DNA of 64,000 nucleotides from a virus (IMGVR_UViG_3300040786_000047), one strand, 5' to 3'. Shown: positions 6,606-60,689, counted from the first letter of the stretch. Numbers and translations are program-made. The notes: a model not told the origin generated them from the sequence alone.

Positions 6606-7035
6606 ATGTTCGAAATCTATCAAGAAGATAAGTTAAAAAAAGATAATTCAGGATATACCTTCAAAGTATTCTAATAATGGTATTAGAAGAACTGTATTTC
6701 CTGAAAAGAAATGCCTACCGATGAAATTATGCATTTTTCAATATGATTATAGATGATATAGGATATATCTTAGACGCACCGGTTACGCAAATAGAAGGTA
6801 AGACACTTCTAACAAGTAGAATTTGCTCATCCTCACTTAATGACTTAATAAAAATAATTTTAGTTAAATGTCAAAAGGATGATATGTCTATCGGATACTA
6901 TAATGTATCTATTGATGATAATAATTTATTGAATATATATGTATTTAGAATGTTTTATTATGATGATATTGGTAAGTAACAGAAGAAGTAGAGAAACTAA
7001 AATTAATGATATATTAAGTTGGTTATATACTTAGT
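6606..7035 (+). CDS. Hypothetical protein ending in RETKINDIL tail (frameshifted)
   Basis: Includes ORF 6743..6979; next frame reads AGA GAA ACT AAA ATT AAT GAT ATA TTA. Confidence 0.5.
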
Positions 7036-24064: not shown

Positions 24065-24456
24065 TTAAATAAAAAAGTTAGGATATAATCCTAACTTTTT
24101 TTTCTTTAATATATCTTTATTACTTATTAAGTAATCTATTTTATTATCTCTTATCATATTTAGGTCGTATGTTAATAATATTTCAAATGGATCCATGTAT
24201 ATATCCACGTAACATTGATATCCGCATATCTCTCCGACTTTTCGCATCTCATTACTATCTCCGAGTATCATTAATGTATCAATAAATCTATTATCAGTTG
24301 ATATAATATTATATACATGAATTGGAATTATCATACTATTATAATCTCTATAATTATATATTTTATCAAATATTATTTTGCTTTTTCTCTATATTCATCT
24401 ATAAAGCCATGTCCGTAATTATCAGAATTTAATACCTTACTTAAATCTATATCCAT
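24065..24456 (-). CDS. Small protein resembling an internal segment of gp23 major capsid protein plus IRDNKID tail (one frameshift)
   Basis: NSMIIPIHVYNIIST..VGEICGYQCYVDIY..ILLTYD aligns by eye with T4 gp23 NFIIASRNVVNVLAS..AGVLGGKYRVYIDQY..FTVGYK. Confidence 0.5.
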
Positions 24457-35873: not shown

Positions 35874-36548
35874 TTTCGTTCTAAGTTGAAAGTAATATTA
35901 ACTTGATTTCCTTCTCCAATAGGAACATTCTCTATATATATAATACCATAGTCATAATTTATTGTGTTGATAACTTTATTAAATGCATCTTCTGATATCT
36001 CTATAAGGCTTCTGTCGTATGGATATAGAGTATCTTCTGATATAGTATGAAATCCATTAGTCTTATCAAAATTTATTATAACTCCATAAAAAATTCATTA
36101 TCTATGCCTTTTTTTCTTATTTCATTATATTTATACAATTCAACTGAAAAAATATTATTCTCCAAAGATTCTTTTCATTTCGGTAATTATCATGTGCTAC
36201 GCTTCTAATACCATCTAAATAACGTATTTCACCTAACTCGAACCGCTCGTCGAATAATTCAACAAGACATCCTTTAATCATATCATCTTTATCTTGTGTT
36301 GATTCTTCTATCTTATTTGTTTTTACTGGTTTTAGGTCTCTTAAATCACTAACCTTTGACGGATCACCTTTCTTTCTCTTTTTTAGACTTTGTATCTAAT
36401 ACAACTCCTATATCACCACTTCCTTCTGTTCCAGTGTTACCTGCGATGCTCCCGCTTGTGATGAAACTACTGCACCCATTCCAGATGTATTAGATGCATT
36501 TGCTGTTGCGTCTTCGTAAAACTTTTAAAACTTTTTTAAGTGTACCAT
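35870..36548 (-). CDS. CTS-like N-terminus protein (frameshifted)
   Basis: MVHLKKF..FYEDATANASNTSGMGAVVSSQAG. Confidence 0.55.
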
Positions 36549-59592: not shown

Positions 59593-59594
59593 AA

Positions 59595-59610
59595 TTAATA
59601 TATATATTAA
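59595..59610. promoter_or_regulatory. Palindromic bidirectional late-type promoter
   Basis: Perfect palindrome TTAATATATATATTAA between divergent starts 59592(-) and 59626(+). Confidence 0.6.
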
Positions 59611-59625
59611 AAATAATAACATAAA

Positions 59626-59939
59626 ATGAAAATTAAACGTTTTTATGAAAGTGAAGAACAAAAGAATATCTCATCTGAAAGGGTTGAAGAAATACTAAAA
59701 GTTTAAAAGACTTTTCAGTTAAAATTGGAGATGAGAACAAAACAATAGATTCTTTGTTGACTGAATTGAGTTCTTATAAAAATTTATCATCTAAGTAATG
59801 ACCAGATTGATGACTCGATAGCAGCATTACAAATTGTTTCTAAAATGTAGATGACACCATTGATAAATTAGATACTGTTATAAATAATTTAGATGATTAT
59901 AATATTTCAGGTAGAAGTTACCTATATACTGAGAATAAA
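59626..59939 (+). CDS. CTS-like coiled-coil protein (frameshifted)
   Basis: MKIKRFYESEE; heptad-like DQIDDSIAALQ..IDKLDTVINNLDDY. Confidence 0.6.
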
Positions 59940-59971
59940 TAAACTAATTAAAAATATTATTATAATATATT

Positions 59972-60160
59972 ATGAAAGATAAAAAATTGACATCAGTGAA
60001 GGATATGTTTTCGCTCCGTATATATTGGCAAGTACCTACCCTTTAGATATTCCAAATTTTTCAAGTAAAGTTTCAATTTCTCACCGGTATGTTACTACTA
60101 GTATTATACCTATAAATGAAATACGAAAGTCTAAATAGAAAATAATAAAACTCACTGATT
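59972..60160 (+). CDS. Mini-protein resembling the gp23 C-terminal GxxxAPY..NF..RY segment plus IRKSKI tail (frameshifted)
   Basis: SEGYVFAPYILASTYPLDIPNFSSKVSISHRY vs T4 gp23 DAGIYYAPYVAL..DPKNFQPVMGFKTRY. Confidence 0.5.
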
Positions 60161-60173
60161 AGTGAGTTTTATT
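60144..60173. terminator. Bidirectional intrinsic terminator
   Basis: AATAAAACTCACT-GATT-AGTGAGTTTTATT. Confidence 0.85.
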
Positions 60174-60199
60174 ATTTAATTAATTTTATTTTGTGAACT

Positions 60200-60689
60200 T
60201 TAACTATAAAGTGTTTTGTAAATAAGAACGACTATATCATCAACAATACTATGTAAATGCGTATCTTCTTCGGATATACTCTTTCTAGCATGTTTTACAT
60301 ATTCTGCAAGTTCTTCAAAGTATGCCAACTTTTCTTTTGTTTTAGTACCGTTTGTATCAATTGTCTCATAACCATCAACAATACCATATTGTCCTTGATA
60401 TGTTTCTATAACAGTGTCTATAAGGTCTAATATACCATCATAGTACTCACCAAGTGCAAGGTGTGCTGCATGTGAACCTTCATCACCTCTTACTTGTAAA
60501 TGATAAACGTGTGCCATTTCTCTTGATTCAAACAATTTAGAGAAAAATGTAACTACGCTTCCTTCAGTTTGCCTCAGTTGGTACCTCATCTACAACAGGA
60601 CTAATTTGTGCCGCGGTTTCAACATTTGCGATATTAGTCAATATCTCATCTTGTTCGTATACTTTTCTTATGTGTGAAAACTTTTTCAT
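60200..60689 (-). CDS. DUF5856 / Dps-like four-helix protein with CTS-like N-terminus (one frameshift)
   Basis: MKKFSHIRKVYEQ; AHVYHLQVRG..AHLALGEYYDGILDLIDTVIETYQG. Confidence 0.75.

Follow-up and report, generated by a model that had tools for sequence, protein, structure and literature searches.

A conserved small gene of huge phages derived from a C-terminal segment of the major capsid protein

Results

Gene content and sequence state of the locus

The DNA analysed here is a viral stretch of 64,000 nucleotides (IMGVR_UViG_3300040786_000047), which is referred to at its full length as the window. The locus of interest carries, on the plus strand, a 106-aa gene, a promoter-like box and a mini-gene with similarity to the phage major capsid protein (MCP), followed by a hairpin and a convergent DUF5856 gene (Table 1). 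The interval 59972-60162 is a genuine small protein gene that is conserved across the lineage, which becomes apparent once the letters of the window are corrected. An earlier note on this DNA had quoted a peptide (IDISEGYVFAPY...NEIRKSK), and this peptide is present letter for letter on the plus strand, extending from 59986 to a TAG at 60136-38 in the -1 frame relative to the ATG at 59972. As deposited, the frame of that ATG (ATG AAA GAT AAA AAA TTG...) is closed after 24 codons, and the -1 frame of the quoted peptide has no ATG and an early stop. Similar fragmentation extends over the window (29% GC), where ORFs reach at most 248 aa over the 64 kb and represent pieces of larger proteins in a PHROGs search; for example, a 145-aa ORF corresponds to positions 308-435 of a 621-position DnaB-like helicase model. 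Alternative genetic codes were considered and rejected, as no stop-codon reassignment opens the window frames. The ORFs are fragmented because single-base deletions in homopolymers (A/T) are present as sequencing errors.

To correct the sequence, we turned to X1, the public run that contains the largest share of the sequence words (61%); it is an ice metagenome and probably represents the source sample. One of its short-read contigs, at depth 66, spans 59594-60412. Over these 819 bp the contig and the window differ by 0 substitutions and by 12 inserted letters, all of them in homopolymers. Within the mini-gene the contig restores four A's (+A after 59980, which converts A6 to A7, +A after 60132, and +AA after 60138), and the ATG at 59972 then opens an intact 64-codon ORF (MKDKKIDISEGYVFAPYILASTYPLDIPNFSSKVSISHRYVTTSIIPINEIRKSKIEKIIKLTD) that ends in ...NEIRKSKIEKIIKLTD with a TAG at 60160-62. 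The earlier note had left room for corrected reads to show no ORF at this position; they give an intact one, and its 64-aa product matches a called gene of a JGI metagenome, P0001, at 100% identity and coverage. An assembly artefact is rejected, since the identical protein occurs in these independent data. The database entries P0002, P0004 and P0006-P0008 represent this gene as well, with frameshift errors of the type seen in the window. A programmed -1 frameshift at the A-run was likewise rejected: ribosomal slippage is not needed, because the short-read contigs show A7 rather than A6, and they restore the C-terminal tail of the protein. The broken ORFs of the window are therefore sequencing artefacts and not biology, and this provides a practical warning: as homopolymer deletions occur throughout the window, any frameshift or mini-gene call there needs prior correction.

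Table 1. Features of the mini-gene locus in the window and MCP-derived genes of the relative LR745206.
Sequence	Feature	Position	Strand	Remarks
Window	Upstream neighbour gene, 106 aa (MKIKRFYESEEQ...YLYTENK)	59626-59941	+	Intact after correction
Window	Upstream box AAACT-N15-TATAAT	59941-59966	+	N16 after +A at 59949; ends 5 nt before ATG
Window	Mini-gene, 64 codons + stop	59972-60162	+	Missing A's in runs 59981-86, 60133-35 and 60139-42
Window	MCP-derived part, residues 3-49	59978-60117	+	~MCP residues 493-550 (..PGIIFVPYLMAQSIS..TFAPRMLLRSRY..FMTIN)
Window	C-terminal tail IRKSKIEKII	60121-60147	+	Lineage-wide motif; broken in window by missing A's
Window	Bidirectional intrinsic-terminator hairpin	60140-60177	.	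Shared with convergent DUF5856 gene
Window	Convergent DUF5856 (Dps-like) gene	60200-60589	-	
LR745206	MCP-derived gene	291371-291877		MCP 7-51 and 86-118; E 1e-17 to 9e-22
LR745206	MCP-derived gene	554787-555317		MCP 50-98
LR745206	MCP-derived gene	93236-93517		MCP 44-85; T4-CTS-like MRYLKPYKKFIE leader
LR745206	MCP-derived gene	440158-440358		Spine-helix region 339-371; tail; weak (Pfam E 1.7e-3, MCP profile E 0.48)
LR745206	MCP-derived gene	207176-207904 (L020:7176-7904)		MCP 343-531; 243-aa truncated paralog
LR745206	MCP-derived gene	104947-105336		MCP 411-485; tail; family of the window's 24-kb gene
LR745206	MCP-derived gene	255013-255249		MCP 493-539; tail; ortholog of the window mini-gene

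Conservation across the phage lineage

The host lineage of the mini-gene is a huge phage of a Lak-related clade with a gp23-type capsid, from ice and seawater. The nearest DNA relatives are the uncultured phages LR745206 (634,780 bp) and LR756502 (642,428 bp), at approximately 70% identity; a search of the phage collection returned these two and no near DNA match. The MCP of the lineage (LR745206/LR756502) shares 29% identity with the MCP of Prevotella phage Lak-C1 and approximately 25% with cyanophage gp23. The candidate host is probably a polar marine Bacteroidota. This clade is abundant, with more than 2,100 MCP relatives in metagenome proteins and 228 in IMG/VR contigs, and close relatives of the stretch are found in ice, seawater and sediment metagenomes.

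Orthologs of the mini-gene are present in six diverged lineages, on phage contigs of 0.1-0.64 Mb, and occupy the same syntenic spot with a 105/106-aa gene upstream and the convergent DUF5856 gene downstream. The encoded proteins comprise 75 aa in LR745206, 61 aa in LR756502, 66 aa in two clean contigs (L042 and L043), 59 aa in a 105-kb contig (P0009), and 67 aa in IMG/VR contigs of 313 kb and 483 kb. Frames of 59-75 codons are thus open across lineages in which amino acid identity to the window protein declines to 33-37% and dS is saturated, and every ortholog copy retains the start codon, the open frame, the tail and the terminator. Estimates of dN/dS for the mini-gene in three independent pairs were 0.40, 0.38 and 0.36, compared with 0.03-0.1 for the neighbouring 106-aa gene, which is syntenic in all lineages and has 97% and 66% amino acid identity to two relatives. 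The mini-gene is thus under purifying, though relaxed, selection, with the dN/dS of the MCP-like part approximately 5-10x that of the neighbour. Pooled over the three pairs, synonymous changes lie approximately 4 SD above the neutral expectation. One variant (P0005) has lost the S-H-R-Y stretch, whereas the tail is invariant.

HMMER searches over 1.84 billion representatives returned P0008, a frameshifted variant of the gene, and P0009, a further ortholog, and found no other families. A search of the ESM Atlas gave no usable match, and Pfam and PHROGs gave none for the window peptide. The locus also varies in its gene content. A tandem 50-aa sister gene (L001 6296-6448; LR745206 255218-255367) lies directly upstream of the LR745206 ortholog, encodes MFVAPDPN..GRDVWMPNFWFRPLIRKEKIEKIF.., a shortened version of the first MCP-like strand followed by the tail, and has a promoter-like box; this gene is absent from the window. 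In two other lineages, a pair encoding PrkA (AAA+ Ser kinase/protease-like) and DUF444 (YeaH-like) is located between the 105-aa gene and the mini-gene (L002 6087-9404 and L044 1590-5001), and in these the mini-gene follows DUF444 directly, with no intergenic space and without a box of its own.

Origin from the major capsid protein

The Pfam family Gp23 (PF07068) matches the LR745206 ortholog at model positions 308-356 of 376 (E 2.2e-4), with a score of 21.2 bits that is below the gathering cut-off of 24.4. A phmmer search of the same ortholog against the large ORFs of its own genome identified the MCP, at residues 501-545 of the 567-aa open frame that contains it (E 2.2e-5). Profile comparison with hhalign became stronger as sequences were added: five orthologs against two MCPs gave a probability of 95.2% (E 2.7e-8, score 54.1), five against 25 MCPs gave 96.2% (E 2.2e-9, score 60.8), and seven against 72 MCPs gave 97.1% (E 6.1e-11, score 70.0), the latter aligning mini-gene product residues 2-45 with MCP 493-536. 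By comparison, the maximum score from 100 column shuffles of the five-ortholog profile against the 25 MCPs was 23.2, and chance similarity to the MCP is rejected as the family profile is far above all shuffles. The window protein (P0001) alone is only marginally similar to the 72 MCPs (probability 4.1%, E 0.01, score 22.0; maximum of 60 shuffles, 20.9; phmmer E=3). The MCP match is therefore provable only through the family, and the match to the gp23 C-terminal signature that the earlier note had made by eye is upheld for the orthologs (scores of 61-70 versus at most 23.2) but is marginal for the window copy on its own (22.0 versus 20.9).

The mini-gene descends from the 3' end of an MCP gene copy (residues ~493-550, ~58 codons) to which a tail was fused. 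The small proteins are co-linear with MCP 493-550 (LGRKNNPDQ-PGIIFVPYLMAQSIS-..-TFAPRMLLRSRY-..-FMTIN), and the co-linear homology to bona fide MCPs covers this segment of ~45-58 residues only. The LR745206 copy is full length and almost gapless over MCP 493-550, the LR756502 copy retains PGVIFVPY...TFSPNKTLRSRY, and the lineage of the window has an internal deletion. This segment is among the most invariant stretches of the MCP in 72 sequences (PGIIFVPY, TFAP, LRSRY, FMTIN), and the residues kept in all of the small proteins (G, P-Y, N) or in most of them (F-S/T-P, S-R-Y) are ones that are invariant in the 72 MCPs. In place of the last nine MCP residues (VTDAAGLLN), the small proteins carry the tail [IL]-R-x-x-K-I-x-x-I-[LFI]. 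At 64 residues versus 559 for the MCP, the window protein does not contain a complete HK97 fold (N-arm, E-loop, P and A domains). Sequence searches of the PDB with the mini-gene and MCP profiles gave no match. AlphaFold2 models of the MCP from 25 and 72 in-clade sequences had mean pLDDT values of 42 and 52, with values below 50 over residues 496-544, and are unusable because the alignments are too shallow (70-87% identity); co-folding of the mini-protein with the MCP gave a score of 0.00 and a partner pLDDT of 36, values that speak neither for nor against binding.

Other genes derived from head proteins

The earlier note had proposed a scan for further MCP-derived fragments, and such fragments were found both in the window and in LR745206 (Table 1). 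Among the 180 ORFs of at least 300 aa in LR745206, the MCP is the only one with five or more small-ORF look-alikes (E<1e-3); the others have at most two. The 243-aa truncated paralog is encoded approximately 5 kb downstream of the true MCP gene and ends in the tail RDIKIDTLL. The N-terminal-fragment gene at 93236-93517 has a counterpart at 36367-36548 on the minus strand of the window, with a leader MVHLKKF.. followed by ..NASNTSGMGAVVSSQ..GSGDIG; this protein matches MCP ~44-90, the N-arm region, with an hmmsearch E of 1.8e-4 for the MCP profile, and it has no RxxKI tail. A search of Lak-C1 with its own MCP at BLAST sensitivity, which is insensitive, found no fragments. A 143-aa ORF (LR745206 598960-599388) contains SRIDGYPIF, identical to MCP 207-215, and has a tail-like end, RDVKLMNIL, although its similarity is not significant (E ~0.1).

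A gene at 24 kb in the window had been described in the earlier note as mimicking the MCP segment that directly precedes the one in the mini-gene, and this holds for its family. The 104947 family aligns with MCP 411-485 (hhalign score 35.7, E 1.7e-4; maximum of 60 shuffles, 22.1), as compared with 493-550 for the mini-gene. This alignment comprises residues 25-92 of the family and extends by eye to MCP ~494; as the mini-gene starts at 493, the description of the two as adjacent, non-overlapping pieces stands.

Directly upstream of the MCP gene, LR745206 198486-200666 (L004 3-1163) encodes a 727-aa protein with NI(A/S)YSEY(I/L)AENLDK repeats that contain many I/L-x-E sites, similar to T4 prohead-protease sites. 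This repeat protein is probably the scaffold. A few of its repeats are copied in a distant, tail-bearing mini-gene (LR745206 460438-460698, E 1e-37). A mutational bias that favours highly expressed genes, and not selection, could explain why MCP and scaffold fragments are over-represented.

A C-terminal tail shared by unrelated small proteins

The tail is short, basic and amphipathic. In a six-frame scan of LR745206 for the pattern [IL]-R-[DKNE]-x-[KR]-I-x-x-[IL]-[LFI] located 0-8 residues before the stop, 63 tail-bearing ORFs were identified, mostly of 45-250 aa. Matches to a loose pattern were within 8 residues of the ORF end in 138 of 281 cases, and those to a strict pattern in approximately 35 of 41. 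The corrected window gene ends in EIRKSKIEKII-KLTD and thus carries the tail, which is invariant among the mini-gene orthologs and is their most conserved part. As the earlier note had stated, both the mini-gene and the 24-kb gene bear this tail; instances in the window include 6933-7031 (+) and 24068-24388 (-), and in LR745206 many carriers are clustered on one strand in the first 46 kb. The earlier note had also taken the IRxxKI ending as the mark of a family of capsid mimics. This part of the proposal does not stand: the tail occurs in approximately 60 small proteins whose N-terminal parts are unrelated ORFans, and it therefore does not define such a family.

Codon usage for R, K, I and L at the motif matches genome-wide use (for example, AGA 73% versus 78% and AAA 74% versus 74%), and the tail is therefore selected as a peptide and not as a DNA signal. 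A role as a promoter of the downstream gene or another DNA-level signal was rejected on this basis, and a terminator follows the mini-gene. When 59 tail-bearing proteins were scanned with Pfam and PHROGs, Gp23 was the only Pfam family (two members) and one PHROG match was to 'major head protein'; no domain hinted at a partner of the tail. None of the large LR745206 proteins, including the polymerase, ends with the tail, and the absence of this ending from all large replication proteins speaks against a clamp-binding motif.

Expression signals

The promoter-like box that the earlier note had placed ahead of the gene (AAACT..TATAAT) is present and typical of the lineage. The class AAAC[TA]-N16-17-TATAA[TA] occurs 65 times in LR745206, of which 37 are at most 40 nt upstream of an ORF start; a swapped control gave 1 of 45, and the background is approximately 6%. 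The same box lies before the L042 orthologs and the L001 ORF A, and it recurs before orthologs that have intergenic space. It also precedes the tandem mini-gene, the MCP N-terminal-fragment gene at 291407, PrkA, and several large replication-type ORFs. The region upstream of the MCP gene is without this box and ends in a TATAAAAAAAAATA-like stretch. A sigma-70 promoter scan gave no signal above shuffles, and among the sequencing runs that contain the stretch none was of RNA. Judged from sequence, the mini-gene would be transcribed from the AAAC[TA]-N16-17-TATAA box, with its promoter function and timing being predicted.

A terminator had likewise been called after the mini-gene, and the hairpin found there has a predicted energy of -18.2 kcal/mol (z -8.9). 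The last four codons of the mini-gene (KLTD) and its stop codon are located in the 5' arm and loop of this hairpin. All five lineages tested have a hairpin with different stems (CTCACT, CCCAACT, CCCTCA and CCCCTC among them), and the retention of the structure with different stem sequences represents compensatory conservation of the terminator.

Discussion

Relation to known capsid proteins and capsid sensing

We consider it highly probable that the mini-gene is real and derived from the MCP gene. Its product is homologous to a C-terminal stretch (model 308-356 of 376) of the family that includes T4 gp23 and gp24 (PF07068, HK97 fold). Duplication of an entire capsid protein gene is well known from cases such as T4 gp24, and the mini-gene resembles gp24 in being a duplicate of the MCP gene that is kept elsewhere in the genome. 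It differs from gp23 and gp24 in that approximately 10% of the fold is kept, so that the small protein cannot form an HK97 domain, in that an unrelated tail replaces the last nine residues, and in that it lies outside the head module with a different upstream box. Conserved and apparently selected genes made from short segments of a capsid protein are not familiar to us.

The Gol peptide of T4 gp23 is the trigger of the Lit protease, and the MCP is also sensed by CapRel. The systems Gol/Lit, CmdTAC, CapRel, Avs7 and Dsr1 represent precedents for a host that reads a short MCP segment or new MCP in trans. In each of these, however, the MCP itself is the trigger, and Gol is a different region of the MCP from the one considered here; we know of no separately encoded MCP fragment for any of them. 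MCPs are established triggers of CmdTAC (PMC11618068) and of Avs7 and Dsr1 (PMC13581612).

The favoured explanation, which we hold tentatively and at somewhat less than even weight, is that the peptide is a trans-acting mimic of an MCP segment, with the mechanism as the least certain step. Transcription would proceed from a box type that also precedes replication-type genes, unlike the MCP gene, and because the upstream region of the latter is different, we infer that the peptide would be present before the bulk of the capsid protein. The peptide would act in trans and mimic the C-terminal strands of the MCP, thereby occupying a factor that recognizes this segment in newly made or unassembled MCP. 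Such a factor would be a host MCP-sensing or MCP-binding protein in preference to the capsid lattice, as the box is not of a late type, the neighbours are non-structural and the gene evolves fast, and the tail would couple the peptide to a common partner of the tail family. Whether the MCP likeness is functionally relevant is, in our judgment, evenly balanced; the argument in favour is that the surviving residues are MCP-invariant, that the MCP is uniquely over-sampled and that no Pfam family other than Gp23 was matched by the 59 tail-bearing proteins. It is doubtful that the peptide is specifically a decoy for a host factor, and a peptide that resembles a sensed epitope should set off the sensor instead of silencing it. 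The fast-drifting MCP-like part and the invariant tail fit a tail-driven function just as well.

Alternative explanations

Under such a tail-driven function, which is a genuine though lesser possibility, the tail would serve to dock or target its carriers to a hub they have in common, for instance a protease or a chaperone, the inside of the capsid or some other machine of the phage, and the MCP part would be coding material recycled from a broken MCP duplicate, without a part in mimicry. SspB-type ClpX-binding tails have a variable N-terminal part and a short conserved C-terminal docking motif, and the ~60 tail-bearing proteins have the same architecture, with diverse N-terminal parts and one basic-hydrophobic C-terminal motif; the motif sequence is different, and the likeness is by architecture alone. 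Favourable to this explanation are the conservation of the tail above every other part of the orthologs, its position 0-8 residues from the stop in approximately 60 proteins with unrelated ORFan N-terminal parts, the genome-wide codon usage at the motif that indicates peptide-level selection, and the rapid divergence of the MCP-like part, deletions included. It does not readily account for the over-sampling of the MCP, unique among 180 large proteins, or for the identity of the residues that survive, as stuffer should lose the MCP-invariant ones at saturated dS. Moreover, no large phage enzyme, polymerase included, ends with the tail, and therefore no known hub is implied.

We regard as unlikely a role in head assembly, in which the protein would bind the MCP or scaffold during prohead assembly, or be a minor capsid component, and would cap an edge strand, set size or occupy special lattice positions, comparable to T4 gp67 and gp68. 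These T4 core proteins are small, head-associated and from a gp23-type phage, and T4 offers a precedent for small core proteins, CTS-tagged internal proteins and L/I-x-E processing (PMC9026906). The only proteins sampled into mini-genes are head proteins, namely the MCP at least five times and the repeat protein upstream of it once (E 1e-37), and the sister genes for MCP N-terminal fragments (window 36548 (-) and LR745206 93236) carry a T4-CTS-like MKxIKxF leader. The mini-gene itself has none of the features of T4-like prohead core or internal proteins (CTS, L/I-x-E sites, head-module location): its N-terminus, MKDKKIDISEG, is not CTS-like, the sequence is not rich in L/I-x-E, and a C-terminal tag is present instead. 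In the relative, approximately 54 kb separate it from the head module and its neighbours are non-structural genes; its promoter-like box is common to replication-type genes and not to the MCP, and it evolves rapidly, whereas the corresponding MCP segment, which it would need to match, hardly varies.

The two remaining alternatives are effectively excluded. Decaying pseudogene debris of an MCP duplicate, open by luck, could explain a dN/dS above that of neighbouring genes and the internal deletions of some variants, but is very improbable: six lineages retain the open frame, start codon, tail and terminator, an open frame of 64 codons at 29% GC has a chance of approximately 0.5% by a rough base-composition estimate, and the synonymous excess reaches ~4 SD over neutral in the three pooled pairs. 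An origin in chance similarity, in an artefact of assembly or in programmed -1 frameshifting on the A-run is scarcely credible. The window copy alone is marginal against the MCP and the deposited sequence is readable only with changes of frame, but the family profile exceeds all shuffles by far, the short-read contigs have A7 rather than A6 and restore the tail, and an identical protein is present in independent data.

Significance

Returning to the capsid-mimic explanation, a broader and decidedly speculative reading treats the dispersed mini-genes that tile the MCP (the N-arm, the spine helix and two adjacent C-terminal pieces), together with the scaffold fragment, as one self-mimicry system. 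Most members would share a single C-terminal tag and be expressed ahead of the capsid, and the system may pre-empt host factors that read MCP epitopes or regulate how an exceptionally large capsid is assembled; the tag they have in common would then be a previously undescribed addressing signal on approximately 60 phage proteins. The tiling of the MCP in combination with a shared tag is an unusual and conserved pattern. If the small proteins are indeed mimics, they would give a phage a new means of handling immunity that senses the MCP or of controlling how a very large capsid is built. If the reading of the tail is correct, its motif would be a new kind of address label, and knowledge of the partner could give a function to a large share of the dark-matter genes of this clade.
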